A stretch of DNA of 38,572 nt from NCBI GenBank assembly GCA_041576165.1, contig JBFGLM010000043.1, forward strand, positions 1 to 38,572, given 5' to 3'. This document shows positions 11,002-30,458 of this stretch, one piece after another. The notes beneath the pieces were generated by a model. The model was given only the letters and a program-made list of their open reading frames with translations, did not search any database and was not told where the DNA came from. The stretch is from Acidimicrobiia bacterium. Lineage in GTDB: Bacteria > Actinomycetota > Acidimicrobiia > Spongiisociales > Spongiisociaceae. The position numbers and the translations under genes are program-made. Every line of letters starts with the position of its first letter. The first letter of the stretch is position 1.

Positions 11002-11201
11002 GGCATGTCTCCAGTCTTAGGGGCTCAGCGATAGGCCACTGTCTCGTCGGATGTGTACCACGGCTTGCTGCGCGACGAGCGCAGAAGCCATGTCACGGAG
11101 CGGTGTCGCAACGAACGCTACCTCCGGTCGTACCGTTCCACTGCCTATTGGCTGACCCCCTTGGGCAATGAGCCCTCTTCGGCCGGACCACGCCCGTGAC
11201 T

Positions 11202-11741
11202 TCAGTCGTGCCGGGAGTGCTTGATGAGCTCGAACAGTTCCCGGTTCCAAGCGGCGTGGACGTCGGGGGCGAGATGGTTCGCTTGCCTCGGAGGGATTTC
11301 AACCCCGGCTTCGATCGCAGCTGTATTGAGATCGTGCAACCGGTCGGGCCAGCCGTGCGGCCACGGGTCTACGAGTGACCGCAGCATCTGGAGGTCCCAA
11401 TCCCAATATCGGGCGTAGATGTCAGGTGCGTCACGGCCCAGATCGAACCACTCGGCGAAGCGTTCCAACGTCGGCACCCACGCCCAGAACTCGTCAACAT
11501 CGCCACAGAACTCTCTGACACCTGTTTCGATCTCATTCGACGTCGACCGCAGGTCATCGGGCGAGATCAGCCGCCAGACGCCGGCGATGAAGTCGTTGGT
11601 GGTCGGGTCGATGTCGACATCGGCGGAGATCGCGCTCCATGCGCGGCCGTCCTCGTCGGCCAGACCGATCCACATCAGCTCGGACCGACCCGACCACGGA
11701 AGAGCAGTCCACTCGGTGTCGACGAATATCCGGCGTGTCAT
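11202..11741 (-). CDS. Rv2179c/RNase AS-like 3'-5' exonuclease domain protein
   Basis: N-terminus IFVDTEW...ELMWIGLADEDGRAW resembles the family start (D-T-E-F...L-I-S-I-G-x-V-x-E-D-G-R-E). Also FWAW and YWDW. Confidence 0.55.
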   Translation of the reverse strand: MTRRIFVDTEWTALPWSGRSELMWIGLADEDGRAWSAISADVDIDPTTNDFIAGVWRLISPDDLRSTSNEIETGVREFCGDVDEFWAWVPTLERFAEWFDLGRDAPDIYARYWDWDLQMLRSLVDPWPHGWPDRLHDLNTAAIEAGVEIPPRQANHLAPDVHAAWNRELFELIKHSRHD

Positions 11742-11932
11742 CGCCAGATGGTAAAGCCGCGATGCCGGCTCTTGCTGGTTCGCCGCCAGCTTCGCACGCA
11801 CCAGCAAATGCGGGGCACGGTGGCAACGCTCGTTCGACAGGAGCCACACCCGTCCGTGCGCAGTTTGGTGCCTGCCACGCAAGGCCGCACTCGGATCACC
11901 ACCCTCTCAACACCCAGAACCGATCGAGTCGT

Positions 11933-12979
11933 TCAATCTCCGCCGAGTGGCCACAACTTGCCGAGCGCCACGGCCGCACCCGCCAACGTCAAGCTGGCCA
12001 AGATGAAGACGATGGGCCCCCAGTTCACCGGCGTCTTCTCGGCGGCTGCTTGGGGGACGACCGAAGGCTGAGCCTCCGGCTGCGCCGCGGGCTGCTGGGG
12101 CTCCGATCCGATGCCGAATTCCACGAATTGCGTGATTGATTTCTGGCCGTTCCGCTCGCTGGCGGAGCCATCCCAGACGGCCAAAGCCAGCTTTGTCTGA
12201 CCGTCCACAACGAACTCCGCCAGCCCCTCCGATGAGGGTGCCAGCGAACGGCTGAACAGAGCCCGCCATGTGCCGTCTCGCCACTCGCCACGCCCGGTCA
12301 CGTCCTGAATCTCCGCCGTCGTCAGCGTTCCGAAGCCTTCGGCAACCAGGTTCTCGACTGGAGTAGTCCGATCTCGCTCGGCCATCAGATTGCCGACAGC
12401 CCGCGCCGGGTTGAACGTGGTGTCATCCGCCTGCTGATAGAAATCTGTCTGGGTGTTGGGGTAGTTGTCGAGCGACGTGGCGAATCCGTCGTCGATGTCC
12501 GCCTGCCATACCGCTTTCCAATGCCAGATGTTGACCGGCAACCCGGCGGCCCCCATTGTGTACGGGGGTTCGGCCGCGGCGCTGCCGGGGAACTGAAGGG
12601 CCACCGCATCTGAGAAGGCCTCGCCGCGGTTCACACTCATGTCGGGTTCTTCGTCCGGCCACTCGACCAGTACGTGGATCTGTTCGTCGTCGAATACAGT
12701 CCGGACGGTGACGGCGTCAACGCCTCCACCGCCGAACGGCGGGACGATCGTCTGGGCGGACATGGGTATCTCCGCCGCCGGTACCTCGTCCCACTCCTGC
12801 GCCCACACGTCGTCTGCCGGGATCGAGGTGTCGATCCGCGACGCGACCACCGACGCAACCTGGGCATGCAACGGTGCGAACTCGAATGCACCGGCGATCA
12901 AACCGAGGGCGATGGCCAGCAGCACGGACCTGTAACCGGAGAGGCGCGCGCGGGCGTCAGCAGGTGTGGGAAACGGCAT
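11933..12979 (-). CDS. nxrC: Heme b-binding gamma subunit (EbdC/NxrC-like, DOMON-type) with N-terminal signal and C-terminal TM anchor
   Basis: EWPD...FSDAVALQFP, YTMG...VNIWHWKA (Met ligand region), AEGFGTLT and LAVWDGSASERNGQKS (Lys ligand region). Signal peptide ends near PLHA|Q; hydrophobic C-terminal helix. Last gene of the molybdoenzyme operon. Confidence 0.8.
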   Translation of the reverse strand: MPFPTPADARARLSGYRSVLLAIALGLIAGAFEFAPLHAQVASVVASRIDTSIPADDVWAQEWDEVPAAEIPMSAQTIVPPFGGGGVDAVTVRTVFDDEQIHVLVEWPDEEPDMSVNRGEAFSDAVALQFPGSAAAEPPYTMGAAGLPVNIWHWKAVWQADIDDGFATSLDNYPNTQTDFYQQADDTTFNPARAVGNLMAERDRTTPVENLVAEGFGTLTTAEIQDVTGRGEWRDGTWRALFSRSLAPSSEGLAEFVVDGQTKLALAVWDGSASERNGQKSITQFVEFGIGSEPQQPAAQPEAQPSVVPQAAAEKTPVNWGPIVFILASLTLAGAAVALGKLWPLGGD

Positions 12980-13730
12980 GCTCGAATCCCTCCCTTTCGT
13001 TGTTGGGCATGGGCACCGGAGTGGCGGCCATGGGGCAGGTCATCTCACCGGGCTCGTCCGCGATGAGGACCGGTTCGTCTCGAAATCGAGCCACATTGCC
13101 GAGCCGCAGGAACTTCTCCTCCGATGCGACAAAGGCTCCCAGCAGCCGGGCGGCCGCCGAGTAGAACCCGCCGCCGGCGGCTACGTCGATGCGCTGGGCG
13201 ATCAGCGGCATCCAACGAGCCGCGTGGTCTCGCACGAAGCTGCGCTGGGCTTGCCTGCACAGCTTGACGTGCTCGGCCTCGTCACCATCACGCGCAGTGG
13301 CCTCCTTGACGGCCAGGAGGTACATGAACTCGAGCTCGACACTGAGGTGGTCGGCCCGCTCGGCACGGGCATCGACGCCGAAGGCCCGGTAGAAGCCGGC
13401 GATGTCGGCCTGGTGCTGTGTCTGCTGAAAGATGTGCCGGGCGCTGAATGCCGTCTCGTGGACCGGGCAGTCCTCGTTGTAGCTGAGGGTGAAAGCCCTC
13501 TGGAACGATGCCTCGAGCGTCGCCTGATCGACCCCCTCGACAACTCGGGCCAGATCTTCTGCCGCATCGAAGACCGCCGCGCCGATGACGCCGGCGCCCA
13601 TTCTCGCCACCGACGCCGCCCGGCGCAGGTCGGTCACCGTGTCCCGGGTGGGGTAAGTAAACGAAAGGCCGAGCAGGCGATAGATCGCTGCCCTGGAGAG
13701 CGCTCGCTCCTCGCCGGTCACGCGTGCCAT
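12957..13730 (-). CDS. TorD/DmsD-family molybdoenzyme maturation chaperone (NxrD-like)
   Basis: RAAIYRLL, CPVHET, ADIAGFYRAFG, ERADHLSVELEFMYLL and FVRDH...W motifs. Lies between the beta and gamma subunit genes. Confidence 0.9.
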   Translation of the reverse strand: MARVTGEERALSRAAIYRLLGLSFTYPTRDTVTDLRRAASVARMGAGVIGAAVFDAAEDLARVVEGVDQATLEASFQRAFTLSYNEDCPVHETAFSARHIFQQTQHQADIAGFYRAFGVDARAERADHLSVELEFMYLLAVKEATARDGDEAEHVKLCRQAQRSFVRDHAARWMPLIAQRIDVAAGGGFYSAAARLLGAFVASEEKFLRLGNVARFRDEPVLIADEPGEMTCPMAATPVPMPNNEREGFEHAVSHTC

Positions 13731-13745
13731 CAGCTGCTCTCCTTC

Positions 13746-14978
13746 CTAGATCGAGTTGAGGTACTGGGCGGGCCGCTCAAATTGCGGCTCTTGCACGGTC
13801 ACTCGCACGATTTCGCGACCGTCACGTGCGTAACCGATGACGAGGTCGTTGAAGATCTCGAGCGGCTCGCCGGCCACGTTCACCTCAGAGATCTTCTCGC
13901 CCTCGACCACTTCGAACGTGAAGATGATCTCCTGGGCGACTCTGAAGAGTTGAAGCACTGCCGACGCCCGGCGGGAGGGCCGCTCGTACGCCTGGAGTGC
14001 CTGGTCGACGCCCGGGCCGAACATCTGCCGCAAGTAGTCCCGCGGCACCCACCGCGGGGGGATGTAATAGACGTTGGGTTGTGTCCCGAACTGGGGATAC
14101 AACGGCAGGGCCATTTGTTCTTCACGAATCAGGTAATAGATGGGGTTGTCCGGGTTCGCCTTCCACGTACCGTCCGGGTTCATCTCCACGAGCCCTTGCA
14201 GCCGGATCTGGCCGGGGCAGGCGGACATGCATCGCGTCTCCATCGGCAACCCATTGGTGAGCGGGTCAGTTCCGTCGACGCGCGGATAACAGCCAATGCA
14301 CTTCTCGGACGTCCGCGAGTCCGGACGGTACATCGGCTTTTTGTAGGGGCACTGCTCGACGCACTTCCGGTAGCCGCGGCATCGCTTCTGGTCGATGAGG
14401 ACTATGCCGTCCTCTTCCCGCTTGTAGATGGCGTTGCGAGGGCAGGCGGAGAGGCAAGCCGGGGTCGAGCAGTGGTTGCAGATCCGCTGCAGATAGAAGA
14501 ACCATGTCTGGTGTTCCGGCAGGCTCACGCCTTCCCCCAGGTTGCGGGCGGCCGCCGAATCTTCGTGGATGTTGGGTGCGGACCACTCTTCATCGGTGGG
14601 CAGGTACCCGAGCGCTTCCTGCCCCGTTCCCTGCGCTGCCTCGAAGATCGTCTGGCCTTCATAGGTCCCGTACGGCGCCTCTGAACTGGGTGTGCCCCCC
14701 CACGTCTGGCCGTCGGGATTGGCTTGTTCGAGAAGGTCGAGGATCTTGACATCCCAGCCCTGCGGATAACCTCCGTAGGGCTTGGTTTCGACGTTGTTCC
14801 ACCACATGTCCTCCTGACCTTCCGAGAAGGTCCAGGTCGACTTGCATGACATCGTGCAGGTCTGACACGCCAAGCAACGATTGGTGTTGAAGATCGCGGC
14901 GAATTGCCATTCGGGACTGGCCGGCTCGAACCGGTAGCTCATCTCACGACCGAGTTGCCAGTTGTAGACGGTTGCCAT
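13746..14978 (-). CDS. nxrB: Nitrite oxidoreductase/nitrate reductase beta (Fe-S) subunit, anammox/Nitrospira type
   Basis: N-terminus VYNWQLGREM and WWNNVETKPYGGYP are characteristic of periplasmic NxrB. Four Cys groups: CLACQTCTMSC, CNHCSTPACLSAC, CRGYRKCVEQC (3Fe-4S type) and CIGC...CMSAC. Also LPLYPQFGTQPNVYYIPPRWVP. Confidence 0.9.
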   Translation of the reverse strand: MATVYNWQLGREMSYRFEPASPEWQFAAIFNTNRCLACQTCTMSCKSTWTFSEGQEDMWWNNVETKPYGGYPQGWDVKILDLLEQANPDGQTWGGTPSSEAPYGTYEGQTIFEAAQGTGQEALGYLPTDEEWSAPNIHEDSAAARNLGEGVSLPEHQTWFFYLQRICNHCSTPACLSACPRNAIYKREEDGIVLIDQKRCRGYRKCVEQCPYKKPMYRPDSRTSEKCIGCYPRVDGTDPLTNGLPMETRCMSACPGQIRLQGLVEMNPDGTWKANPDNPIYYLIREEQMALPLYPQFGTQPNVYYIPPRWVPRDYLRQMFGPGVDQALQAYERPSRRASAVLQLFRVAQEIIFTFEVVEGEKISEVNVAGEPLEIFNDLVIGYARDGREIVRVTVQEPQFERPAQYLNSI

Positions 14979-14979
14979 C

Positions 14980-15291
14980 TCAACTCACCTCCGGACCTTG
15001 TTCTGGCGGGTGTCCCAGCACGTCGGTGATGAGCCGCTCGACGAACTCGGGCCCGCGGTCCCGGTAGACGGCATGGGCTGCCACGTACCTCGGCATTCGG
15101 AACATCCGGGCGATCCGGTCGCGCGGCCAGCCGAGCCGGGCGAACTCCTCGACGAAGGCCCTGGCCATGGCCGCCATCCCGTCGTAGCCGGGAGTGGAGT
15201 AGGCCACGGCGGTCGCCATGTACGGATCGGTCGGTTCGGCGACCTTGGACTGCCCTGTCCGTATGCTCACGGGCTGGAAGTTGCCGGTCAT
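14980..15291 (-). CDS. Small hypothetical protein between nxrA and nxrB
   Basis: 103 aa. Its ATG overlaps the nxrA stop (ATGA). It ends 1 nt before the nxrB ATG and contains the nxrB RBS (GGAGGTGA). Core MARAFVEEFARLGW...MFRMPRY...H...Y. Confidence 0.8.
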   Translation of the reverse strand: MTGNFQPVSIRTGQSKVAEPTDPYMATAVAYSTPGYDGMAAMARAFVEEFARLGWPRDRIARMFRMPRYVAAHAVYRDRGPEFVERLITDVLGHPPEQGPEVS

Positions 15292-18200
15292 TGAACGTAG
15301 CCTCCCGTTAGGTAGCGACGCATCCGGTCGTCTTCGTTACCCGGTGAGCGGCCGGTGGTCGCCGGCTCCCAGATGCCGACGCCGCCGAGACCGCCGTCCT
15401 CCGCCTTCGTCACCCGGACCAATGTCTCCTTGGGAACAGTGTTGATCGCGTGGTTGTCGGCCTCGCCGCCGAACATGAACGAGACGGCGATCTTGCTCTT
15501 GTGGAAGAGGGTGTCGGTCTGATGCATGGGCATGGCCCAGTCGCGAGTCACGCTTTGGTGCGACCCGTACCGATAGCTCGACTGGTAGCCGGTGTCTTCT
15601 GACACGGCCCGGCCGTCGGGGCGGGTCTCGTGGGCCAAGACCGTTTTCTGGGTGGCAAGCCAGTACCCATGTTTGGCCATCAGCACGTTGTATGGGTACG
15701 CCGCGTTGAACTTGACCCGCAGCATGAGGCGCGCCACCTTGTGGAACGGATCGGAGGTGTCGTCGGGGTCGTAGTTCGGGTAGGGCCGGTCGAGCGGGTT
15801 GGCGTCGATCCACACATAATCCCCGTCTTGGAGCCCCAGATCGCGCGCTGCCTCGGGGTTCATGTGGACCTCCCGGTCCCCGACATGGGGAAGGCGGATG
15901 TCCCGGCGATGAGGATCGCCGAAGTTGCTGCCCCAAATCGTCTCCCAATCGGTGACCGCCCACCCCGAGTGCGTTGTGTGGCGGGTCTTGGGCGTCAGGA
16001 AGTAGAACTGGAAGCCCTCCTCCCACAACGGGTTGGTTGTCTGTTTGGTCTCCTCCCAGGAGAGCTTGATGTTGCGCACCGTGCGCAGCTCCGGATCCAT
16101 CTCGTCGCGAGGTATGCCGTAGTCCTCCGGTTGGATCAATGGGTTCGTAGTGACGATCACGTTCGGCAGATATGGCGTGGCCTCGGGTCCCTCGCGATGG
16201 ACGATGAAGTTCTCGCCGTACTCGATGGCCTCGGGTATCTCGACGTAGGAGTGCATGCGCCCGGTCTCTGTCCAGAACGGCAGATCGTCATGAACCTGCT
16301 CCCAGAAGGGGATCCGCGGATAGGTCCGAAACATCATCAGCGCCGCGCCGGGTTCCCCGTACTGACCCTCGCGGATGTCGTCGACGCGGTACCCGCGGGT
16401 GGTTGCGGAGGCGTCGAGCAGACGCTGCATATAGACCTCGCCCCGGCCTTCGAGCGCAAACTTCCAATAGTCGGCGAAGCGGGGATCGTCGAGGATCGCG
16501 CCGAGGCGCTCCGCCACCTTGGCCATCATCATCAAGTCGTCTTCGCTTTCGAAGAGGGGTTCGATGCCGTCGCGTCCCCATATCTGTAGGAAGGGGTTGG
16601 AGCACGAGGCGGTGATCTCCGAGGTTTGGAACTCGACCCACGAGTTGGCCGGCAGCACGAAGTCGGAAAGCTCACACGACGAGGTCATCTCGATGTCCTG
16701 GGTGATGATCATGTCGACATGCGGGTTCACGTCCCGGATCACCAGGTAGGCGTGTTTGGCGTTGTTGATCAAGTTGACATTTGTTGTCCAGATGACCTTC
16801 GTCGGGGTCGGCATGTGGGACTGACCCGTGAAGTTCAAGCGACCGAACCTCGGCGTGTCCACGATCAGCGCCCGGTCACCGTGATCCCAATAGGCGGGCT
16901 CTTCGTCCTTGGTGTACGCCCGCACGACGATGTCTTTGCCGTCGGCCGATTCATCGAGGGTGGGGTTGAAAGGATCCTCGGCCACCCACCCCTTGAACCC
17001 CGGACCGGACCAGTCGGTCGATTGCCATAGCGCCGCCTTGTAGTTGCCCGCCCAGGTATGGCTGCCTGCTCCGGGAACACCGATGTTGCCGGTGAGCATG
17101 ACCGGGAGGTAGGTCGCCCGGTTGTGCAAAGTCGCGTGGAACCAGTGGTTGATGCCCTCGCCCGTGTGGATAGCCACCGGTTTGATCGTCGCGATGTCGT
17201 CGGCAAGGCGGCGGATCAGCTCGATGGGTGTGCCGGTGATCTCATGGACGGTCTCGAGGTCGTAGTCCCGCAGGTGGTCGCGATAGGCCTCCCACAGTGT
17301 GAGCACCTCGACGGTGCTGCCGTCGACCAGCTGGACCGGTCCGCGATAGTCGAGGCGCGGCACGAACCCGCGCTCCACCATTCGGCCACCGACATCGTCG
17401 CGCGTAATGGCCCGCAGGCCCCCCTCGCCCTCGTCGAATACGACGAAGTCCCCGCCGATTGCCTCGTACTGTTCGGATGTGAGCTTCTGCTCGGTGTAGC
17501 TCGGCCCGGCCGGATCCAGCGCCGGCACGTAATCCGGGAACACGTCGCCGGCCCGAAGCCTCTGCAGGTTGTCGCTTCGCAGCAGCAGGGGAAAGTCGGT
17601 GAACCGGAGCACGAAGTCCTCGTCGTACAGATCCTCGTCCATGAGGATCTTGGCGATCGCCAGGAATATTGCGGTGTCGGAGAGCCCGGGTCGAACCGGG
17701 AGCCAGTAGTCCGACTTCGAGGCCGGGGGACTGTACTCGGGGGCGATCGTCACGATCTTGCCGCCGTGCTCCATGATGTTCGAGAAGAAGTGGGACTCCG
17801 GCATCTTGTTCTCGACGAGGTTCTTCCCCACCTGGATGGTCAGCTTGGAGTTGGCCAGGTCGTTGAAGTCCGGCTCGGACGTCTGCACACCATGTACGAA
17901 TGGATGCCCCGGCGCCTGGTCTCCGTGCCACGTGTAGTTCGACCAGTTGCGGCCGCCTCGCGCCTCGTCCGGACCGACGCCGCGGACGCCGGTATCGAGC
18001 AGCGCGAGTGCGTTGCTCATGCGGTACATGCCGTATTTGCCGATGACGCCGAGGAGTCCCATCCCCCCGCGCAACTTCATGGTGCGGGTGCCGGCACCGC
18101 CCATCTCGTCGACCATCTCCGCCTGATAACCCTCGTCCAGCAGGCGTTGCGCGCCGGCTTCGCCGGAGTAGGCCTCGGCGACGGCAATGAGCCCGCGGGC

Positions 18201-18737
18201 GATGTAGTCATACATCTCATCCCACGACACACGAACGAACGTGTCGGTGCCGCGGCTGGTGAACATGTACGTTTCCCGGTTGTCAGCGGTGAGCTCCGGG
18301 AACCCGTCATCCGCCCACTGCTTCCAGCCGGCCCGGACCAGGGGGAATTTGAGCCGGTACGGCCCGTAGACCCGTCGGTGGAACGTCTGCCCCTTCTTGC
18401 ATCCGCGGGGGTGCCATTTGACCGAAGCGGTGTTGCCCAGCTGGTCGGCGTAGCGCCCCACGTCGTAGTTCTGCTCGATGCGTTGTATGACGCCGTTGCG
18501 AGTGAACGCCCGCAGGCGGCAGGCGTGGGTGTCGTTGGGAGAGCAGACGAATGTGAAGCTGTTGTCGTACGCATACTGGTCTCGATAGACCCGCTCCCAG
18601 TCGCGGTAGGGGTAGAAATCGAGCGGGTTGGCCACTGTGTCGGCCGTCTGAAAACTGCGCAGAAGTGGATAGGACGCAGCGCCGATCGTGGCGACCGTAC
18701 CCAGCTTGAGGAAGTCCCTGCGCGACATTCCATCCAC
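15288..18737 (-). CDS. nxrA: Tat-exported Mo-bisPGD catalytic subunit, anammox/Nitrospira-type nitrite oxidoreductase (nitrate reductase) alpha
   Basis: Tat motif SRRDFLK. FS0 motif C-x3-D-x3-C-x39-C (CSPNDTHAC...PRGC). Mo-ligand Asp in NWSNYTWHGDQAPGHPF. Long blocks match recalled anammox NxrA (RGGMGLLGVIGKYGMYR, EYGENFIVHREGPEATPYLPN, EADNHxINTVPKETLV). 1149 aa, RBS AAGGAGGG. Confidence 0.92.
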   Translation of the reverse strand: MDGMSRRDFLKLGTVATIGAASYPLLRSFQTADTVANPLDFYPYRDWERVYRDQYAYDNSFTFVCSPNDTHACRLRAFTRNGVIQRIEQNYDVGRYADQLGNTASVKWHPRGCKKGQTFHRRVYGPYRLKFPLVRAGWKQWADDGFPELTADNRETYMFTSRGTDTFVRVSWDEMYDYIARGLIAVAEAYSGEAGAQRLLDEGYQAEMVDEMGGAGTRTMKLRGGMGLLGVIGKYGMYRMSNALALLDTGVRGVGPDEARGGRNWSNYTWHGDQAPGHPFVHGVQTSEPDFNDLANSKLTIQVGKNLVENKMPESHFFSNIMEHGGKIVTIAPEYSPPASKSDYWLPVRPGLSDTAIFLAIAKILMDEDLYDEDFVLRFTDFPLLLRSDNLQRLRAGDVFPDYVPALDPAGPSYTEQKLTSEQYEAIGGDFVVFDEGEGGLRAITRDDVGGRMVERGFVPRLDYRGPVQLVDGSTVEVLTLWEAYRDHLRDYDLETVHEITGTPIELIRRLADDIATIKPVAIHTGEGINHWFHATLHNRATYLPVMLTGNIGVPGAGSHTWAGNYKAALWQSTDWSGPGFKGWVAEDPFNPTLDESADGKDIVVRAYTKDEEPAYWDHGDRALIVDTPRFGRLNFTGQSHMPTPTKVIWTTNVNLINNAKHAYLVIRDVNPHVDMIITQDIEMTSSCELSDFVLPANSWVEFQTSEITASCSNPFLQIWGRDGIEPLFESEDDLMMMAKVAERLGAILDDPRFADYWKFALEGRGEVYMQRLLDASATTRGYRVDDIREGQYGEPGAALMMFRTYPRIPFWEQVHDDLPFWTETGRMHSYVEIPEAIEYGENFIVHREGPEATPYLPNVIVTTNPLIQPEDYGIPRDEMDPELRTVRNIKLSWEETKQTTNPLWEEGFQFYFLTPKTRHTTHSGWAVTDWETIWGSNFGDPHRRDIRLPHVGDREVHMNPEAARDLGLQDGDYVWIDANPLDRPYPNYDPDDTSDPFHKVARLMLRVKFNAAYPYNVLMAKHGYWLATQKTVLAHETRPDGRAVSEDTGYQSSYRYGSHQSVTRDWAMPMHQTDTLFHKSKIAVSFMFGGEADNHAINTVPKETLVRVTKAEDGGLGGVGIWEPATTGRSPGNEDDRMRRYLTGGYVQ

Positions 18738-18750
18738 GGCTCAGCCCTCC

Positions 18751-19695
18751 TTACTCTTCCAAAGTTCCGCCCGCCGGCGGGCGGCGTGTGATCGGCAGCA
18801 GCGCCGCCAGGAGCAGGAACCCCATGAGAGCTGCCAACGTGTGATGTGCGGCCGACGGTGCCGTGCCGGTCAGTGCCAGCAGCGCCAAGGCTGCGGCCAG
18901 GGGACGTGTTGGTTCAGCCACCAGCCACTCGGCGGCCAGCAGGCCGGCACATGCCGCGCTGACGACGTACAAAGCAGGAGCCAATGACAGGCTCACGCCG
19001 AGTGCTAGATGTGAGGACATTGCGACCTGCTGACCGGCCGTGGCCACCGCAATCCCGGCGCCAAGTCCGCATAGGAGCGCCGGCTGCCAGACAATCCGGT
19101 GATGACGGCGATGCAGCACGAGATCGATCGCAAGCGCTATCGGCACCAGCGACAGACTGGCTTCGGCGATCGTACGCGCGGTCGTCACGCCAACCCATCC
19201 GATGTCCGCAGACAGTGCGACGAGGGGCCAGATACCGGCGATGATCGCAGTGCCGGCTGCGAGTAGGGCGGCGTGTACCCAGCTCCGGGGCGACAGGCCG
19301 AAAACGACTGCGAGGAGGGCAACCACTCCGGCGACACCGGCCAGTTGGATCGCAGTGGCCGATAAGGGCCCCGCCAGCACGACGGCGGCGGTTGCGATCG
19401 CCAGCATGAACGCGGCGACGCGATACGTGCGCCAGAGTGATGCGGCCCAGAGTGCGGCTGCCAGCACGGCAAGCCAAGCAGTCGCCCTCTGGCTCATGCT
19501 TCCCAGCTGCACGAGCAGAGCGCTGCCAGAGAGCGGGGCCGCCAGACGCTGCAGCGTGATCTCGGCGAGCCCGGTGATCGCAGCCGCCAGGATGAGCGTT
19601 CGCGCCAGCCCGGTAGGCAGAGCGACCGTGTCACCGCTGCGCCGGCCTCCCGACCTGGTTTCGAGAAGCGGAATCGGCGGCAACGCTGTAGCCAT
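18751..19695 (-). CDS. Hypothetical polytopic membrane protein (about 9-10 TM), first gene of the nxr operon
   Basis: About 314 aa, Ala/Leu-rich, with roughly ten hydrophobic segments. Stop lies 13 nt before the nxrA start on the same strand. No family motif recognised. Confidence 0.7.
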   Translation of the reverse strand: MATALPPIPLLETRSGGRRSGDTVALPTGLARTLILAAAITGLAEITLQRLAAPLSGSALLVQLGSMSQRATAWLAVLAAALWAASLWRTYRVAAFMLAIATAAVVLAGPLSATAIQLAGVAGVVALLAVVFGLSPRSWVHAALLAAGTAIIAGIWPLVALSADIGWVGVTTARTIAEASLSLVPIALAIDLVLHRRHHRIVWQPALLCGLGAGIAVATAGQQVAMSSHLALGVSLSLAPALYVVSAACAGLLAAEWLVAEPTRPLAAALALLALTGTAPSAAHHTLAALMGFLLLAALLPITRRPPAGGTLEE

Positions 19696-19817
19696 GACCA
19701 ACCCTTTGATCTCTCTGATCGTTAAGCGGATAGGTAGGGGTTACCGTCTCTTGTACCGCATGATATGGTTATCGTCAAGCCTCTTACATAACGTTTTTCA
19801 AATCTCTAAGGGTTACG
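19696..19817. promoter_or_regulatory. Divergent promoter region, nxr operon / Rrf2
   Basis: Short AT-enriched intergenic segment between divergent starts. It contains an 11/13 direct repeat, TAGGGGTTACCGT (19735-19747) and TAAGGGTTACGGT (19807-19819). Confidence 0.55.
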
Positions 19818-20312
19818 GTGCAGCTGGCGCTTGGCAGGAAAGGTGACTACTCCGTCAGGGCAGTGCTCGACGTGGCTGGGAATTGGACCAAAGGCCGGCG
19901 CAAAGCCCGCCAGATCGCCGAAGTGATGGACATCCCCGAGCGCTATATCACTCAGATCCTGGCGAATCTCGTACGCGAAGGGCTGCTCACCGCGGTCGCC
20001 GGGCCGGACGGTGGATACGAACTTGCCCGCCCGCCCGAGTCCATCTCGTTGCGCGACGTCGTCGAAGCATCTGAAGGGCCACTCGCTCTCGATAAGTGCA
20101 TCCTGCGCGGTGGGTCGTGCGATTGGGTGTCGAAGTGCCCGGTCCACGATACGTGGTCGCGGGCCCAGGCGGCCCTACTGCACGAACTGGAATCGACGAC
20201 TTTTGCCGATTTGGCGAAGGTCGATTTGGAAATGGTGGCCGGGAATCAGCCGGTGCTGGACAGCGAGCCGCACTCCGGCGCGACTCAGCGCAAGGGCAAG
20301 AGCCGCGCGTGA
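19818..20312 (+). CDS. Rrf2-family Fe-S transcriptional regulator (IscR/NsrR-like)
   Basis: DYSVRAV, IAEVMDIPERYITQILANL, GPDGGYELARPPESISLRDVVEASEG and the three-Cys motif CILRGGSCDWVSKCPVH. Confidence 0.92.
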   Translation: MQLALGRKGDYSVRAVLDVAGNWTKGRRKARQIAEVMDIPERYITQILANLVREGLLTAVAGPDGGYELARPPESISLRDVVEASEGPLALDKCILRGGSCDWVSKCPVHDTWSRAQAALLHELESTTFADLAKVDLEMVAGNQPVLDSEPHSGATQRKGKSRA

Positions 20313-20430
20313 TGGGGTCCGAGGACCACTGAAACGCTCGAAGTGTGCGGGCTCGTGCCCACGACGCCGATGAGACTGATCCAGGCCAAGTAATAGGCTC
20401 GGCGTCGGACCCTTCAGAGGAGATACACCG

Positions 20431-21615
20431 ATGTTCGTTGCGACCGACGGCAAGGCGCTCCAGACCACTACGACCGGCGCCCTTCCTCGCCCCTCGTGGT
20501 ACACCGAGAACCTGCGCGGCCAGCCCTTGTCCGTGGGTTTCTCGCAGCATGCCTATCGGGAGCAGCACCTCGACACCCTCGCCGCCAACATCGCCATGCA
20601 GCATCGGGCGGGCATCGACATTCTCGTTGACGGCGACTGCCGGCTTGACGACGACTGGGCGGGTAGGTCGTGGGTGGCGTATCCGCTGGAACGGATCGAA
20701 GGTATCGGACCGGGTCGCTTGGAGATGCAGCCGGCCGGGTTTCTCTCCGAGGATCGGGGGCCCGGGGACATCATGTGGGAGGTGATCGAAACCCGCCTCA
20801 CACCCCACGTCACCGGCCCGATCGGGGGTACCAAACTGGAACTCGATCGTGCCTTCAAGGCGATGGCCGCCATGACCGACCGACCGTGCAAGATCGGGTC
20901 GGCATCGGCGCAGATACTCACGATGATGGTGCAGAACGATCATTACGCCGATCGGGCGGAGCTGCTATTTGCCCTGTCCGACGCGCTGAACGCCGAGTAT
21001 CACGCCATGGCCGACGCGGGTGCTCCGATCGTCCAGATCGAGGAGCCAGAGATCCACCAGACGATCCATGATGACAATGCGCCGTTCGTTCCGGAGGTGT
21101 GGGTCGAGGCGTTCAACAGGGAGGCGAAAGGGCTACGCGATCGAACCGAGGTGTGGGCCCACGCCTGCTGGGGCAGCCCGGCCGGCCAGCGCGTATTCCG
21201 GCCCGAGGTCACCTATGAACGGGCGCTGCCGTTCTACGACCGGCTCGACGTGGATGTGCTGTGCCTGGAGGGTGCCTCGAACGGATGCGCCGACGTCGAG
21301 CTTTACGCGCGCCTGATCTCCGAGGACAAGAAGATCGCCGTTGGGATCCTCGATCACCGGTCGGTGCAGGTGGAACGACCCGAACAGGTCGCAGACCTCA
21401 TCCGCCGGTGCCTCGAGCACATCGACCCGGAACGACTGATCCTCACCTCCGATTGCGGCTTCGGTCGCCAGGGGATGAGCCGCATCCAGGCGTTCTACAA
21501 GATGGTCTCGCTGGCGCGAGGGACCAACATCGTCCGCCGGGAACTCGGCCTCGACGAGGTCCACATCCCCGCCACCGATCCCAGGCTGTCGATGGTCCCG
21601 GTGGAGGGGGCGTAG
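20431..21615 (+). CDS. Cobalamin-independent methionine synthase II family protein (single-barrel MetE-like)
   Basis: TTTGALPRP, AGIDILVDG, VQIEEP, and Zn ligands HAC / LEG / SDCGFG. RBS GAGGAG. Confidence 0.85.
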   Translation: MFVATDGKALQTTTTGALPRPSWYTENLRGQPLSVGFSQHAYREQHLDTLAANIAMQHRAGIDILVDGDCRLDDDWAGRSWVAYPLERIEGIGPGRLEMQPAGFLSEDRGPGDIMWEVIETRLTPHVTGPIGGTKLELDRAFKAMAAMTDRPCKIGSASAQILTMMVQNDHYADRAELLFALSDALNAEYHAMADAGAPIVQIEEPEIHQTIHDDNAPFVPEVWVEAFNREAKGLRDRTEVWAHACWGSPAGQRVFRPEVTYERALPFYDRLDVDVLCLEGASNGCADVELYARLISEDKKIAVGILDHRSVQVERPEQVADLIRRCLEHIDPERLILTSDCGFGRQGMSRIQAFYKMVSLARGTNIVRRELGLDEVHIPATDPRLSMVPVEGA

Positions 21616-21757
21616 ATTCCGGATCAGCGCTGGTTTCAGGGGAACGGTGACTGCGCCAACCTCGTCCACCGCGCGTAATCGACCGTCGCAACGCCGCAAC
21701 CAACGCCGGACGGGGACCTCCAGCCGGCTGATGGGCGCGGCCCGTCTACGTCCCGGA

Positions 21758-22159
21758 TCAGTCGGGAATGACCGCGTGCACGTCGACCTCGTACAACATC
21801 CCGCCTCGGGCGAGCCGGGCGACGCCGAGCAGCGTGGCTGCCGGCTTGTCGACCGGCCAGATCCCTCCGACGACCCCGTGGAGAATCGATCGTTTGGCCT
21901 GGTCGAGATCAACCACGTAGTGGATGAGTTTGGTCACCTGGGCAGGTCCGATCCCTGCCGCCGCGAGGTGGGTACGGACGTTCTCGAACGCACGCACGAC
22001 CTGTGCCTCGAACCCGCCGTCGACAAGCAGCCCATCGAGATCGCCACCCCACTGTCCCGCAAAGAACACCACCTGTCCCGGCGGCGGAATCACGATATGA
22101 CTGTAGATCTGGGACGGATCGAACGCTCCATCCGGGTTGATGTGCCGAAACTCGCTCAC
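21758..22159 (-). CDS. RidA/YjgF family protein
   Basis: YSH...VFFAGQ, FEAQVVRAFENV, PAATLLGVARL and YEVDVHAV. GTG start after GAGGAGGA. Confidence 0.85.
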   Translation of the reverse strand: MSEFRHINPDGAFDPSQIYSHIVIPPPGQVVFFAGQWGGDLDGLLVDGGFEAQVVRAFENVRTHLAAAGIGPAQVTKLIHYVVDLDQAKRSILHGVVGGIWPVDKPAATLLGVARLARGGMLYEVDVHAVIPD

Positions 22160-22259
22160 GGTCCTCCTCGAAGACACAGCCAGGCTATCGGGGGCGCGTG
22201 CGCGCAACCTCCACCGGCGTCAATTGCCGCACATGCCTCGATCCCAGCCGTGTCCAAGA

Positions 22260-23228
22260 TCATCTTCGGGGGACTTGGAACACCTTGTAGGGGCCGGTCA
22301 TCGAGAAGAAGCGTGCGTCTGCGACATAGAGATATCGGCCGAAGATGTCGGCCGTCGTCGGCGACTCGGCGCCCACCACCGGAATCACCGAACGCACGAC
22401 TCCTGCGGTCCCGCGACGGTCGAGGCGCACGGCGCTGACCTGTGCCGCGCCGGGCTCGACGACATAGAGGATCCGCCCCTTTCGGACTAAGCCGTCTGGG
22501 CTGACGAACTCGACTCCGGTGTCGATCTGTTGGGCCGAACCGTTCGAAGGGTTGACCGCGAACAGGGCGCCGAGGGAGCTATGGGCCACGATGAGCCCAC
22601 GTCCATCAGGAGTTGTCTCGATGCCGTTCAGATTGGGAAACACCACATCTGGAATATCGACAGTCAACTCCTCGATAGCGCCGGCATCGGGGAGTTTGCC
22701 ACCGGGCCCAAACGGCACCTTGAACAGCCGGGGTTCGCCGGCGAACTGAAACATGTCCGGATCCGGTGAGTTCTGGGTGCCCGAGTCGGTGAACCACGCC
22801 CCGCCCTTCGTGACGATGACGTCGTTGATGAAGGAACCGAAAGGCGCTGTGAGCTCGTAGGTCTCGAGCAACGAACCGTTCCTGCCGTCGTACACCCTGG
22901 CAGTCCCGGTCGGTCCGCCCGAGACCCAGATGCGGTTCCGCTTGTCAACGTCGATCCCGATCGTGGCGAACGGGCCGGCGGGATCGGTCAAGACCTCTCC
23001 TTGCCCGGTTCGCAGGTCGCCCCGGAAAATCGAGCCATCCGCCAGTGAGCCAACGAAGAACTTGGTCCCGCGACCAATTGTTATCCCCTCAGGGAAGAAC
23101 CCCTCTGGTAGGTCGATCTCCGCCGGGAATTGCGCGGAGTGTCCGTTGATCGCGCCGGCCGGCGCCCCCACCACCAGCAGAGCGAGTACCGTGACGATGG
23201 CCAGCAGTGTTCGAAGTCTCCCAGACAT
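22260..23228 (-). CDS. Secreted SMP-30/gluconolactonase-like beta-propeller protein
   Basis: Sec signal (MSGRLRTLLAIVTVLALLVVGAPAGA) and propeller motifs FPEGI, FINDV, WFTDS, NLNGI, SPDGL and SPTT. Confidence 0.75.
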   Translation of the reverse strand: MSGRLRTLLAIVTVLALLVVGAPAGAINGHSAQFPAEIDLPEGFFPEGITIGRGTKFFVGSLADGSIFRGDLRTGQGEVLTDPAGPFATIGIDVDKRNRIWVSGGPTGTARVYDGRNGSLLETYELTAPFGSFINDVIVTKGGAWFTDSGTQNSPDPDMFQFAGEPRLFKVPFGPGGKLPDAGAIEELTVDIPDVVFPNLNGIETTPDGRGLIVAHSSLGALFAVNPSNGSAQQIDTGVEFVSPDGLVRKGRILYVVEPGAAQVSAVRLDRRGTAGVVRSVIPVVGAESPTTADIFGRYLYVADARFFSMTGPYKVFQVPRR

Positions 23229-23422: not shown

Positions 23423-26400
23423 ATGCGCCGCTCCGCGACCATTTGCGCTGCCGTCGGCCTGGTCCTACAGCTCATAGTCGCGCCCTCTGCGGCTGTCGCG
23501 CAGGAAGAATCGTCTTGGATTGTCACGCTCGCTCCGGGCGTCGATCCATCGGCAGCCGCCCATGGGCTGTCCTGGCAGCACGCAGGGTCTGCGGAGCACC
23601 TCTACGAGCACGTCCTCAACGGATTCTCTTTCCGCGGATCACGCCGAGCGGCTGCGGCGCTGGAGCGGCACCCTGCAGTTCTACGCGTGCAGCGCAGTGG
23701 CGTCTATGAACTCACCGAACAAGGCCCCTTCGGCGTTCTCCGCATCGGGGCCTGGGCAGCGAACCAGGCGGGCCACACCGGTCGCACGGCCGACGGCACG
23801 AAAGTTCGAGTCGCCGTGCTCGATTCGGGCGTGATGGCCAACCATCCCGATCTGGAGGCCAACGTGGATGTGGGCGAAGGAAGGAACTGCGTCATCGGCG
23901 CCGATCCGACCGACCCCTCCGACGATCACGGGCACGGGACGCATGTAGCGGGGACCATCGGTGCTGCCCTCAACGGCGACGGCGTGATCGGAGTGGCCAC
24001 CGACGTATCGATCGCCGCGGTCAAAGTCGTAAACGCGCAGGGATCAGGAACCGACGCCGAGATCCTCTGCGGGCTCGAACATGTCGCCGCACTCGCAGCC
24101 GACGGAACCCCGACGGTGATTAATATGAGCCTCGGCGAGGCGCGCAACGAAGGAGTGGGATGCGCCTCATCACCACTGCACCAGGCGATCTGCAACCTCC
24201 ACGCCCAGAATGTGGTGATCGTGGCGGCAATGGGCAACTCCTCCCAGGACGGATCCAGCTTCTACCCGGCCGCCTTTCCCGAGACGATTGGTGTGTCTGC
24301 GTTCACCGACTTGAACGGAACGGGCGGCGCCTCGTCGGGATGCCAGTTCTTCCTCGATAGCTTCTCCCAGTGCGACGAGTCGCTCGCCAACTTCACCAAC
24401 TGGGGTTCCAAGGTGGATCTCACCGCCCCGGGAGTGAACGTCCTCTCCACTACGTTTGACGGCGCATCGGGCCCCAGATCGGGGACTTCGATGGCCTCGC
24501 CACACGTCGCCGGGGCTGCTGCCCTCGTACTGGCAGCCGACCCGACCCTCAGCCCTGACGCGGTCCGTACCCTCCTGCAGGAGACCGGCGAATGCCCCGA
24601 TGGAACCACGTCCGGCGCCGCCACTTGCGCCGGCCGCGGCCAGTGGACCAAGAGCCAGATCTTCGGCGGCACGACCGCAGACCCCGATGGCATCCCCGAG
24701 CCCCTCGTCAATGCGCTGGCCGCGGCGGAGGCCGCCGCCGCCGGAGCTGTCGACCTCGTTCCCCCCGTGATCACTCTGAACCCGCCGAACCCCCAGTTCG
24801 TCACCGTCGGGAACGCCTACCCGGAGTTCGGAGCCAACGCCGTGGACGACCGCGACGGCGATATCAGCGCATCCATCACCGTCGACGCCTCAGCCGTCGA
24901 TACCGCCACGGTAGGCAGCTACCCGGTCACCTACGACGTATCGGATTCAGCTGGCAATTCCACCCAGGTAGTACGCACAGTCGAGGTCGTCGCAACTCCC
25001 GACACCACGGCGCCCGTGATGACCCTGAACGGCCCCAACCCGCTGGTTGTTGCTCAGGACGACCCCTATGTGGAAGAGGGCGCAACCGCAATCGACAGCT
25101 TCGAGGGAGACCTCTCGCCAGCAGTGGTCATCGACAGTTCTGCAGTGGACACTGCAACGGTGGGCTCGTACGAGGTCACATATGACGTGTCCGACTCTTT
25201 GGGCAACGCCGCTCCACAGCTCGTCCGCACGGTCCAGGTGATCTTCGTCGACCGCACCCCGCCGGTGATCACACTCCTCGGCGACGATCCTCAGACCGTT
25301 GTCCAAGGGTTCCGGTACGTGGAGTCGGGCGCGACCGCCTTGGATGACGTCGACGGAGACGTCTCGGCGGCAATCGTCATCGATGCGTCCGCGGTCGACA
25401 CGTCTGCAGTGGGCGGCTACCCGGTCACCTACGACGTATCGGATGCCGCCGGCAACGCGGCCCAGACAACCCGAACGGTTGACGTCGTCGCCGCCTCGCC
25501 CCAGACCTCCCATGCGGTCGATTTCTCTGCGATGAGCATCACCGCGTATGGGAATCAGGATGTTGATTCGGTGATGGCGGTGGAGGATGGTGGGGCTTCG
25601 CTGCGGTTGACGGGGAACGGGTGGAAGAAGCTGCAGCTGCCGACGGTGATCACCCCCAACAGCGTGTTGGAGTTCGACTTCTCGTCGTCGTCGCAGGGTG
25701 AGGTGCACGGGATCGGTTTCGACGCCGACGAGGCGCTGAGTGCCGACACGACGTTCCGGGTGTATGGGACACAGGTTTGGGGCATCGCCGATTTCGCGAC
25801 CTATTCGGGTTCGGGGGTGACGCATTATCGGATCCCGGTGGGTCAGTACTTCACGGGGACGTTCGACTATCTCGTGTTCGCGGCCGATCACGATGTGTCC
25901 ACGCCGAACGCCGAATCATGGTTCTCCAACGTCGAGCTGTATGACGCAGTGCCCGCCGACGTGTCGGCGCCGGTGATCACCCTGCTCGGTGATGACCCGC
26001 AGACGATCACCGAAGGTGATCCGTATGTTGAGTTGGGAGCGACGGCGTTCGACGACTTCGATGGGGACGTGTCGTCGTCGATCGTCATCGATTCCTCGGC
26101 GGTAGACACGTCGGTGGTCGGTGCCTATCAGGTCGTGTATCAGGTGTCGGATGCTGCGGGGAATACCGCCCAAGCCGTCCGGCAGGTCGACGTTGTGGAC
26201 GCCAGCAGCGTCCCGCCCGGCACCATCGATTTCTCGGCCCTCCAGCTCACGTCGTACGGCAACCAGGACGTCAACTCCATCGTGGCGGTGGAAGACGGCG
26301 GGGCGTCGTTGCGTCTAACCGGCAACGGATGGAAGAAGATCGAGCTGCCGACGGTGATCACCCCCGACACGGTGCTGGAGTTCGACTTTTCGTCGTCGGC

Positions 26401-29886: not shown

Positions 29887-30234
29887 TCATAGCCCCAAAT
29901 GCAGGCGAAGAGCCTCGTCGATCTCGACCATCAGGCCGGGCGGGACGCTACCGGCCTTGGATGTGACACGATCGGCAGAGACGGAACGTACTTGTTCGGC
30001 CTGTGCCTTCGAGTCGCGCGTGAGCCCGGTCTGGCCGGCCGGCAGCAGAACTTGGAACGGGTAGACGCGTTCCACATTGGCGGTGACCGGGATCACCGTC
30101 ACTACGCCCCGGCCTAGTCGGGCTGCGGTGGTGTTGGCGCCATCGTTAGAGACGATCACGGCGGGACGCCGCTTGTCTGCGTCACCGCCGCGCGCTGGAT
30201 CGAGATCAACAAGCCGGATCTCGCCGCGCAGCAT
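29887..30234 (-). CDS. mazF: MazF/PemK family endoribonuclease toxin (MazF9-like)
   Basis: MLRGEIRLVDLDPARG...RPAVIVSNDGAN...GRGVVTVIPVT...VYPFQVLL...SKAQAEQVRSV...EALRLHLGL. ATG overlaps the antitoxin stop (TAATG). Confidence 0.93.
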   Translation of the reverse strand: MLRGEIRLVDLDPARGGDADKRRPAVIVSNDGANTTAARLGRGVVTVIPVTANVERVYPFQVLLPAGQTGLTRDSKAQAEQVRSVSADRVTSKAGSVPPGLMVEIDEALRLHLGL

Positions 30235-30458
30235 TATCTCGTGCTCAGACCGTCGGCACTGGTGCCGTCCCATGCCTCGGCGTCGGGCCTGTCGGTCCAT
30301 TCGGCCCACGCGCATGCATAGTCGGCTTCGAGTTCCGAGGCACGCAACAGGCGGACTGCCTGATGGACAACCGCCGAACGCGATTCGTAGCCCTTGATCT
30401 GGGCGTACTGGTCGAGGAACTCAACATCTTCTTCGGGAAGGCTCACACTCAGCTTCAT
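30234..30458 (-). CDS. mazE: Ribbon-helix-helix antitoxin (MazE9-like)
   Basis: MKLSVSLPEEDVEFLD...SRSAVVHQAVRLLR...LEADYA.AWAEW...AWD....DGL, directly upstream of mazF. Confidence 0.9.
   Translation of the reverse strand: MKLSVSLPEEDVEFLDQYAQIKGYESRSAVVHQAVRLLRASELEADYACAWAEWTDRPDAEAWDGTSADGLSTR

Follow-up and report, generated by a model that had tools for sequence, protein, structure and literature searches.

Does a heterotroph-like actinobacterium encode a nitrite oxidoreductase (NXR) of the periplasmic type, and if so, in which direction is the enzyme mainly used? The question is raised by a stretch of 38,572 nucleotides (hereafter the window; GenBank assembly GCA_041576165.1, contig JBFGLM010000043.1, Acidimicrobiia bacterium), which is the entire contig C43 of the host genome G000 (5.1 Mb in 161 contigs). 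The genome is 96.5% complete and 7.5% contaminated, so that gene absences are given below as "not found". To our knowledge, no biological source of nitrate other than nitrite oxidoreductase is known, and in surveys nxrA genes are taken for nitrite oxidisers. We found that positions 11933–19701 of the minus strand carry a cassette, intact and of the Kuenenia/Nitrospira type, that encodes an outward-facing nitrite:nitrate oxidoreductase, the identity of the enzyme and its topology signals being read from the protein sequences. The cassette consists of six tightly packed open reading frames (ORFs) in the order orfX, nxrA, a gene for a small conserved protein, nxrB, nxrD, and nxrC, with intergenic distances of 13, −4, 1, 15, and −23 nt.

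The catalytic subunit carries most of the evidence. NxrA (15288–18737, minus strand; 1149 amino acids (aa)) is predicted to be a molybdopterin protein exported by the twin-arginine translocation (Tat) system (Pfam Molybdopterin, 1.9e-26). In a search of all solved structures, it matched the NXR of Kuenenia stuttgartiensis (7b04_B) with 1700.9 bits over residues 5–1147; the lower-scoring structures were perchlorate reductase (PcrA, 189 bits), ethylbenzene dehydrogenase (EbdA, 163 bits), and Escherichia coli NarG (121 bits). As a sequence match to a solved NXR, the 1701-bit score is far beyond chance. The narG model gave 145.7 bits on NxrA against a cut-off of 1084, and no NarI was found within the cassette. 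The identity of NxrA to Kuenenia NxrA is roughly 65%, estimated not from a direct alignment count but from bit scores calibrated on hits of known identity (64% corresponding to 1666 bits and 69% to about 1940 bits). Kuenenia NxrA is similarly far from the window protein (1701 bits), a Chloroflexota copy (1649 bits), and a Planctomycetales copy (1832 bits). The N-terminus, MDGMSRRDFLK, contains a twin-arginine motif (SRRDFLK) followed by a hydrophobic stretch, although the Pfam TAT_signal model scored 17.6 bits (E 0.0036), under its cut-off of 22.7.

The cofactor ligands can be compared with the Kuenenia structure. In Kuenenia NXR-A, Asp275 is the molybdenum (Mo) ligand, Asn70 is a substrate-side residue, and the iron-sulfur cluster FS0 is bound by three cysteines and Asp71, with Cys67 occupying the position of the NarG histidine (PMC8387239). 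The counterparts of Cys67, Asp71, Asn70, and Asp275 in the window NxrA are C65, D69, N68, and D273, respectively: the FS0 motif reads C65-x3-D69-x3-C73-x39-C113, Asn68 lies within CSPNDTHAC, and Asp273 lies within NYTWHGDQAPGHPF (residues 267–280). The remaining clusters of the Kuenenia enzyme are all-Cys, and the heme b of NXR-C is held by Met155 and Lys305 (PMC8387239). NxrB (13746–14978, minus strand; 410 aa), the iron-sulfur subunit (Fer4_11, PF13247, 4.1e-25), has neither a signal peptide nor a hydrophobic N-terminus. It aligned with 7b04_A from residues 1–410 to 1–410 with 593.4 bits (next-best structures about 200, 198, and 167 bits), starts with MATVYNWQLGR, carries CLACQTCTMSC at residue 35, and has 15 cysteines in four groups, which is the number for three [4Fe-4S] clusters and one [3Fe-4S] cluster. 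The motif RGGMGLLGVIGKYGMYR is also present in the cassette and is identical in the aligned Kuenenia chain. NxrC (11933–12979, minus strand; 348 aa) is the heme-b subunit (EB_dh, PF09459, 5.3e-33); it matched 7b04_C with 105.4 bits against 70.5 bits for the next-best structure, and its methionine in YTMGAAG and lysine in NGQKS align with Met155 and Lys305. Every cofactor ligand named for 7B04 is thus retained in the window proteins. NxrD (12957–13730, minus strand; 257 aa), whose gene follows nxrB in most loci compared, is a TorD/NarJ-type cytoplasmic chaperone (Nitrate_red_del, PF02613, 8.7e-16; TIGR03482, 84.9 bits, under cut-off). All four known subunits were nearest to "DMSO reductase type II" models of NCBIfam without reaching a curated cut-off, and therefore NCBIfam has no model for this enzyme.

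A preliminary description made from the letters of the stretch had read the region as six co-directional genes with overlaps or gaps of 15 nt or less, encoding an alpha subunit with a Tat signal, an Asp-type FS0 motif, and a Mo-Asp motif, a beta subunit with the VYNWQLGR start and CLACQTCTMSC, a TorD chaperone, and an EbdC-like gamma subunit, and had assigned it to periplasmic NXR and not to NarGHI. The results above bear out each of these points.

NxrC offers a clue to how the complex is held at the cell. It has an N-terminal signal sequence, a Pro/Gln/Ala-rich linker, and, by hydropathy, a C-terminal transmembrane helix at residues 321–339. Such a helix was present in 49 of the 65 related NxrC ORFs with a complete 3′ end, including all complete copies labelled Chloroflexota or Actinomycetota and both labelled Hydrothermarchaeota. 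It was absent from the other 16, that is, from every copy labelled Methylomirabilota, Planctomycetota, Acidobacteriota, Elusimicrobiota, Omnitrophota, Armatimonadota, Lindowbacteria, or Sysuimicrobiota, together with two copies that bear no label; many of the helix-less proteins are 520–580 aa long. Since Chloroflexota, Actinomycetota, and Hydrothermarchaeota are generally regarded as single-membraned, we read the helix as a device that would keep the exported complex at the cell. The coincidence of the putative anchor with these lineages is a pattern and not a test, as the relatives are not independent. A C-terminal membrane anchor of NxrC in lineages generally regarded as single-membraned is new here, and it would be a simple, testable answer to how a single-membrane cell retains an exported complex of the soluble type.

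From the known biology of the family, assembly would proceed as follows. NxrA would receive the Mo cofactor and the FS0 cluster in the cytoplasm, aided by the TorD-like NxrD, and the folded protein would be exported via Tat, taking the signal-less NxrB along. NxrC would be exported separately and bind one Met/Lys-ligated heme b, and its C-terminal helix on the flexible linker would hold the complex on the outside of the cytoplasmic membrane, a tether that would suit a cell without an outer membrane. Electrons would pass between the Mo site and heme b via FS0 and the four NxrB clusters, and heme b would exchange them with a membrane-bound high-potential carrier.

Next to its nearest relatives, the window enzyme falls into a small branch of a large family. 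With NxrA as the query, 2156 of 8000 scored candidates proved to be relatives at E 1e-50 or better, and 563 NxrA-encoding stretches were found in species-representative genomes; the same cassette is present in hundreds of public metagenome-assembled genomes (MAGs) across many phyla. The loci compared are the best 80 of the 563, none of which comes from Nitrospira, Nitrospina, or Kuenenia. The order nxrA, small gene, nxrB, nxrD, nxrC is common to most of the 80 loci. A protein library at 50% identity collapsed the whole NXR clade into one representative. A FastTree phylogeny of 96 rows was built from 82 loci, the window, and 13 distant representatives, leaving aside L001, which is identical with the window, L002, which duplicates L010, and L003 and L006, which are fragments; it contains no named row of Nitrospira, Nitrospina, or Kuenenia. 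In this tree, an NXR clade of 83 rows was fully supported against the 13 type II outgroup rows, which sit far away. The window belongs to a fully supported clade of nine rows, seven labelled Actinomycetota or Acidimicrobiia, one labelled Chloroflexota (L009), and one labelled Kiloniellales (L011), whose NxrA proteins are 82–87% identical to that of the window; the sister of this clade is a Chloroflexota MAG (L014). L009 and L011 have the Acidimicrobiia-type cassette (NxrA identity 83–84%) with orfX in both and the Rrf2 gene in L011 too, which points to mis-binning or very recent transfer.

Other NXR types occur within the same class and phylum. The order-mates L004 and L005 carry a different NxrA type (60–61% identity) branching at the base of the NXR clade, and the Actinomycetota pair L067 and L085 is placed elsewhere in the tree. 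Distant full-length NxrA-like families were found in SAR202/Dehalococcoidia (P0122, 47% identity) and in a second actinobacterial class, in Gaiellaceae (P0125, 43%). Among 401 evenly sampled Acidimicrobiia, an NxrA-like gene (E 1e-100 or better) was present in 31, the host included, and in 26 of the 313 high-quality genomes. These holders are mostly of the 58–62% type; the 86% type occurs only in G336, which holds the 4.16-Mb contig of locus L008. In three genomes (G376, G382, and G407) the nxrA match is split in two frames, and a frameshift, a pseudogene, or an assembly error is possible. The cassette flanks differ among the window and all three other clade loci scanned, and a comparison of insertion sites gave no result, the left-flank gene having no ortholog in the family. 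The patchy distribution of NXR is best read as repeated transfer. Mutual exclusion of NarG and NXR across the 401 genomes was considered and is ruled out: four of the 31 NXR-bearing Acidimicrobiia, including the nearest relative examined, hold both, where about two would be expected. In two genomes of one genus in the class sample, a true narG is found no more than about 15 kb from the NXR gene.

The metabolic surroundings of the enzyme in the host bear on its direction. The RuBisCO large subunit was found in none of the five clade genomes, where the search control matched, and ATP-citrate lyase (PF16114) gave no match in a search whose controls were silent too. Neither the siroheme nitrite/sulfite reductase nor cytochrome bd (Cyt_bd_oxida_I) was found in the five clade genomes, whereas COX1 was present in all five. 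No match to NarG in the host genome reached the model cut-off, and NarI appeared only as a 34-bit domain match elsewhere in the genome. The other six Mo enzymes of the host are NuoG, an NAD-type formate dehydrogenase, a BisC-type reductase, the arsenite oxidase AioAB, and two proteins resembling Psr/ACIII (alternative complex III), with no NapA or NasA among them. The arsenite oxidase genes (AioBA; C20, L092:1789–4883) encode a large subunit of 444 bits (cut-off 359) and a Rieske small subunit of 132 bits (cut-off 96), and AioBA is a second extracytoplasmic, high-potential electron-donating enzyme in this genome.

Two nirK genes lie on C45 (L087:5149–7196, 549 aa) and C79 (L088:5288–7309, 540 aa). 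Their products scored 299.7 and 284.8 bits against a cut-off of 296.3, and each is fused to a C-terminal amicyanin-like cupredoxin domain. A bc-type complex on C33 (L089:11987–19145) comprises a split cytochrome b, a Rieske protein, a 487-aa diheme cytochrome c, and a ferredoxin. It is adjoined by a divergent heme-copper oxidase, weakly similar to cbb3 CcoN (135.7 bits against a cut-off of 583), just after which the contig ends; this protein could be an oxygen reductase or a nitric oxide (NO) reductase. The host also has a caa3 oxidase in which cytochrome c is fused to subunit II. A high-potential route toward a terminal oxidase, made up of caa3 and the bc complex, is therefore present, and NXR may be linked to it. 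In the closest complete relative, the caa3 genes COX2 and COX1 (L008:253–1515; G041 C3:1115376–1116710) lie about 6–9 kb upstream of nxr. No COX genes were found in the scanned flanks of the window, L007, and L015, and the proximity in L008 may be a coincidence. The extra cytochromes c and cupredoxins of the set shared by Nitrospira, Nitrospina, and Kuenenia were not found close to nxr, either in the window or in any of three clade loci with scanned flanks.

We give about an even chance to the reading that the main use of the enzyme is outward nitrate reduction under low oxygen, with quinol electrons supplied via the bc complex; the direction is inferred. Nitrate reduction would open a short chain from nitrate through nitrite to NO. 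It is favoured because the genome, which has NirK, yielded no candidate for a dissimilatory nitrate reductase other than NXR, and because the Kuenenia enzyme reduces nitrate readily in vitro. With artificial donors and acceptors, the purified Kuenenia NXR reduced nitrate about 25 times faster than it oxidised nitrite (1.5 µmol versus 61 nmol per min per mg; PMC8387239). The genome pattern weighed here consists of the lack of any NarG, NapA, or RuBisCO found, the two NirK-cupredoxin fusions, and the bc complex with its diheme cytochrome c.

Several observations weigh against nitrate reduction as the main use. The sequence itself does not fix the direction, a point on which we agree with the preliminary description, and family members of either direction, oxidising or reducing, have the Asp-ligated FS0 and the Met/Lys heme (PMC8387239). 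The cassette has no quinol-oxidising subunit of the NarI, NapC, or NrfD type, and the reductive electron supply is a conjecture for this reason. The host has a full aerobic high-potential chain ending in a caa3 oxidase with fused cytochrome c, and its AioAB (444 bits) fits electron harvest from inorganic donors. NirK is also present in accepted nitrite oxidisers (PMC11009272, PMC3578206), and the co-occurrence of NarG and NXR in four of 31 genomes (about two expected) indicates that the two enzymes are not mutually exclusive.

The same enzyme may instead be mainly a nitrite oxidase, which we consider a serious possibility, somewhat short of even. Electrons would then pass from the NxrC heme b through a membrane-bound cytochrome c to caa3, and the protons released outside would add to the gradient. 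The closest characterised enzyme is indeed a nitrite oxidoreductase, with all ligands conserved, and the host combines caa3 bearing a fused cytochrome c with the bc complex, and its arsenite oxidase shows another inorganic high-potential donor in use. The absence of a quinol-linked subunit from the cassette also speaks for oxidation, as does the nearest relative, which keeps a full NarGHI beside the cassette, suggesting that the two are not redundant; the four public runs in which the window DNA is best covered, all of them labelled marine metagenome, are in line with this use. RuBisCO, however, was found in none of the five clade genomes, and neither was a bd or bd-like oxidase, which belongs to the set shared by Nitrospira, Nitrospina, and Kuenenia (PMC3578206). 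The accessory cytochrome c and cupredoxin genes of that set are likewise absent near the cassette (window and three scanned clade loci), and NXR is the sole candidate dissimilatory nitrate reductase found alongside two NirK. If nitrite oxidation is the main use, the host would not be a classical autotroph but a heterotroph that either gains additional energy from nitrite or rids itself of nitrite as a toxic compound, a picture to which we attach the same less-than-even weight. An extension to the whole group is more tentative: the cassette-bearing marine Acidimicrobiia might be unrecognised non-autotrophic nitrite oxidisers whose tail-anchored NXR feeds caa3, with orfX and the small protein as unknown parts of the complex or of its assembly. 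If true, part of the nitrate formed in the ocean would come from an abundant group of heterotrophs, also in low-oxygen water where nitrite oxidation has been measured although the known oxidisers are too few.

It is improbable that the enzyme has a different substrate, whether an oxyanion such as chlorate, perchlorate, or selenate or an organic compound, in the manner of other type II DMSO reductases of the same alpha-beta-gamma-delta layout. The combination of an EB_dh gamma subunit with a TorD-like chaperone is common to the ethylbenzene dehydrogenase (EBDH), Ser, Clr, and Pcr enzymes, and no subunit reached a curated NCBIfam model. NxrA is nevertheless similar to Kuenenia NxrA over its full length, at the roughly 65% identity estimated from bit scores, with PcrA and EbdA scoring nine times lower; both Asn68 on the substrate side and Asp273 as the Mo ligand are conserved, and the type II outgroups lie far away in the tree. 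Branching with selenate, chlorate, or ethylbenzene enzymes or with the haloarchaeal nitrate reductase pNar, which the preliminary description had named as counter-evidence, was not observed; the window lies in the NXR clade.

The enzyme also belongs to its host. The G+C content of the contig is 0.647 against 0.653 for the bin, and its tetranucleotide composition ranks 55th among the 95 contigs of at least 10 kb. The operon lies at a tetranucleotide distance of 0.0133 from the genome, whereas 400 random stretches of the same length have a median of 0.0130 and 42% of them are at least as distant as the operon. The G+C content at third codon positions (GC3) is 0.74–0.86 in the operon and 0.72–0.83 in the flanking genes. 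The gene adjoining the cassette (20431–21615) has orthologs in five of 24 genomes of the same family and in none of 16 genomes of the order outside the family, and the best matches of a GS-like gene located at the beginning of the contig (61–64%) are within the order. Public marine-metagenome contigs cross both borders of the cassette, X1 over 11033–13573 and 18236–22547 and X6 over 18510–20933. X6 stems from another study and, with 99 differences, represents a related strain that is roughly 96% identical; X1 may come from the source sample. In all four of the runs that cover the window DNA best, the summed contig depth over 14408–18679 (nxrB and nxrA) was 2–9 times that of the flanks. The excess is due to conserved pieces of many other organisms passing the 95% threshold and not to copy number. 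No RNA run was found among the public runs that contain window DNA. In a sample ordered by kinship, the nxr gene was found in none of the 24 other genomes of the same family (G028 and G039 among the non-holders) and in four of the 16 sampled from the order's other families. One of these four is the Acidimicrobiia genome G026 (L002, equal to L010), which places G000 in this class. The nearest NxrA sequences are from Acidimicrobiia MAGs, one of which has a cassette of 86% identity on a contig of 4.16 Mb (L008).

Contig composition, flank orthologs, and independent contigs all agree and fit a host of the class Acidimicrobiia. That the contig is mis-binned or chimeric and the enzyme foreign to this genome is very improbable: the bin contamination of 7.5%, the missing gene in all 24 sampled relatives of the family, and the near-identical cassettes in bins titled Chloroflexota (L009) and Kiloniellales (L011) would allow it, but the genome's own composition in contig and operon, a cassette-adjoining gene with orthologs only in the same family (5/24 versus 0/16), the public contigs X1 and X6 spanning both borders, and the 86% identical cassette on the 4.16-Mb contig all stand against it. 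The actinobacterial host, the heterotroph-like context (judged from the gene content of the window), the host-like codon style, and the lack of flanking transposases or integrases, all of which the preliminary description had given, were confirmed, the last by a scan of 32 window ORFs against Pfam that found no such family.

Two members of the cassette have no assigned role, which makes them parts to be explained in a well-studied enzyme system. The small protein (14980–15291, minus strand; 103 aa, without a signal peptide) is encoded between nxrA and nxrB. Like orfX, it gave no Pfam match. By tblastn, homologs were found in 72 of the 80 public loci, all between nxrA and nxrB except in L019, where the gene lies upstream of nxrA. 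An alignment of 67 rows, from which L056 was left out because of stop codons in its reference, showed invariant D22, P23, E49, F64, and G80. None of the 67 members belongs to a Pfam family, and the Atlas clusters are all "hypothetical". The AlphaFold2 (AF2) model (predicted local distance difference test (pLDDT) 87.7) is a small helical domain with four helices at 38–92, and Foldseek found no match to it at E 0.001 or better. A relationship to the FF domain was considered and rejected, the best VIA-align match (Z 6.1) being within the noise range of helical models. We guess at a cytoplasmic assembly role because the protein has no signal peptide. Its conservation across phyla, seen in the tblastn matches, is new here.

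OrfX (18751–19701, minus strand; 316 aa), the product of the first operon gene, is predicted to be a polytopic membrane protein with about 9–11 helices and matched no NCBIfam model. L014 and eight of the nine clade loci have an ORF of 307–407 aa at the same position; for L009, the length refers to the corresponding portion of a longer open frame. These proteins are 26–34% identical to the window copy, with R52, G67, E180, G235, and R266 invariant and H286–H287 nearly so, and tblastn over the 80 public loci found orfX in no locus outside the clade. The AF2 model has 11 helices at a pLDDT of 68, and the Atlas scores are at most 0.82. Assignment to the TehA/SLAC1 anion channels was not significant and is a lead only: the top Foldseek rows had E 0.15–0.6 and template modelling (TM) scores of 0.30–0.40 on the pLDDT-68 model.

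A gene for an Rrf2-family regulator (19818–20312, plus strand; PF02082, 2.3e-33) is divergent from the operon. The protein has three cysteines (C-x6-C-x5-C), as in cluster-binding Rrf2 proteins, and exceeds the cut-off of TIGR00738 (106.9 bits), with the IscR and NsrR models below theirs. An Rrf2 gene adjoins nxr in eight of the nine Acidimicrobiia-clade loci (49–66% identity), and more distant copies (27–38%) do so in 14 other loci. The region between the regulator gene and orfX (19702–19817, minus strand) is a putative promoter/operator with a conserved −35, −10, and AACGTT element: a TTGAC(G) −35 is followed 17 nt downstream by a TA-rich −10, and AACGTT lies upstream of the −35. When eight intergenic regions of the clade were aligned, the AACG and TTGAC columns were invariant. 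AACGTT occurs once in the operon control region, at 19790, against a genome frequency of 0.097 per kb, and a repeat search found no inverted repeat in that region. The Rrf2 protein probably controls this conserved nxr promoter. OrfX, the divergent Rrf2 gene, and the promoter appear to be specific to the Acidimicrobiia-type clade, with orfX also at L014, and are new here. Each nirK gene lies directly downstream of its own Rrf2 paralog (34–37% identical to the nxr Rrf2). Common regulation of nxr and nirK was considered and is not supported: the element upstream of each nirK-linked Rrf2 gene is a long GAATTCCATAGTT...AACTATGGAATTC-type palindrome and thus differs from AACGTT at nxr.

Elsewhere in the window, 23423–27118 (plus strand) encodes a 1231-aa subtilase of the secreted type with four bacterial Ig-like surface domains and an HYR domain, and 29887–30315 (minus strand) encodes a PemK/MazF-like toxin (PF02452, 5.6e-24).

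The cassette thus places a complete, apparently functional NXR in a heterotroph-like actinobacterium, and NxrA-like genes in about 8% of the sampled species of its class. Either nitrate reducers may be passing for nitrifiers in nxr gene counts, or nitrite oxidation may be a genuine activity of a large group of heterotrophs, and both outcomes change the reading of nxr data. The preliminary description had called the system unrecognised in this lineage, which holds only in part. We found no published description of this enzyme in Acidimicrobiia in a literature search that was short on subscription journals and did not include supplements, and the nearest mention is one sentence in PMC13335318 on nxrAB in Actinomycetota UBA5794 MAGs. 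The term is too strong for the sequence itself, with 563 relatives, 31 of 401 Acidimicrobiia holding the gene, and sources that label the genes "nitrate reductase / nitrite oxidoreductase alpha subunit". It is also too strong for the phenomenon: periplasmic NXR in non-autotrophic MAGs is already in print (PMC9306079), where the Nxr of seven heterotrophic MAGs is assigned to the periplasmic nitrite-oxidiser/anammox group and its direction is given as unknown, and 111 nxrA-bearing MAGs, including Marinisomatota and Chloroflexota, have been described from oxygen-deficient zones (PMC10359470).

Among the known systems, the Kuenenia stuttgartiensis NXR-ABC (7B04; Chicano et al. 2021, PMC8387239) resembles the window enzyme in all three subunits from end to end, in the Tat N-terminus, in the FS0 of three cysteines and one aspartate, in the Mo aspartate and the substrate asparagine, in the all-Cys NxrB clusters, and in the Met/Lys heme b. 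It differs in that the Kuenenia complex was purified soluble and forms tubules with NXR-T, whereas the window NxrC is predicted to be membrane-anchored and no gene for an NXR-T-like cytochrome c was matched among the window ORFs scanned; the window host is an aerobic-type heterotroph and not an anammox bacterium, and the small protein and orfX are not chains of 7B04. The periplasmic NXR of Nitrospira and Nitrospina is similar by description, not by alignment or tree: NxrA carries the Tat signal, NxrB is a hitchhiker without a signal, the heme-b NxrC has a Sec signal and exists in variants with one membrane helix, and a TorD-like chaperone is present (PMC3578206). The host genome differs from these organisms in lacking the RuBisCO marker and the bd-like oxidase of the shared gene set. 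The NXR of heterotrophic MAGs of Chloroflexota, Armatimonadota, and Proteobacteria (PMC9306079) belongs to the same enzyme clade and raises the same question of direction, but the window clade adds orfX, the divergent Rrf2 gene, and the conserved promoter and forms a separate NxrA branch of nine rows. NarGHI shares the superfamily and the chemistry, and the NarJ and TorD chaperones are related; NarG, however, scores only 121 bits, the FS0 histidine is replaced, the Tat signal would give the opposite orientation, and an EB_dh heme-b subunit stands in place of NarI. Haloarchaeal pNar, SerABC, ClrABC, PcrAB, and EBDH have in common with the window enzyme a Tat-exported alpha-beta pair outside the cell, and Ser, Clr, and Ebd share in addition a gamma subunit with Met/Lys heme b through which electrons pass to or from high-potential carriers, but they form the outgroup in the tree, with a Halorussus protein (P0134) at 39% identity, PcrA at 189 bits, and EbdA at 163 bits. 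The cassette is therefore a clade-specific layout within a known and widely spread kind of enzyme.

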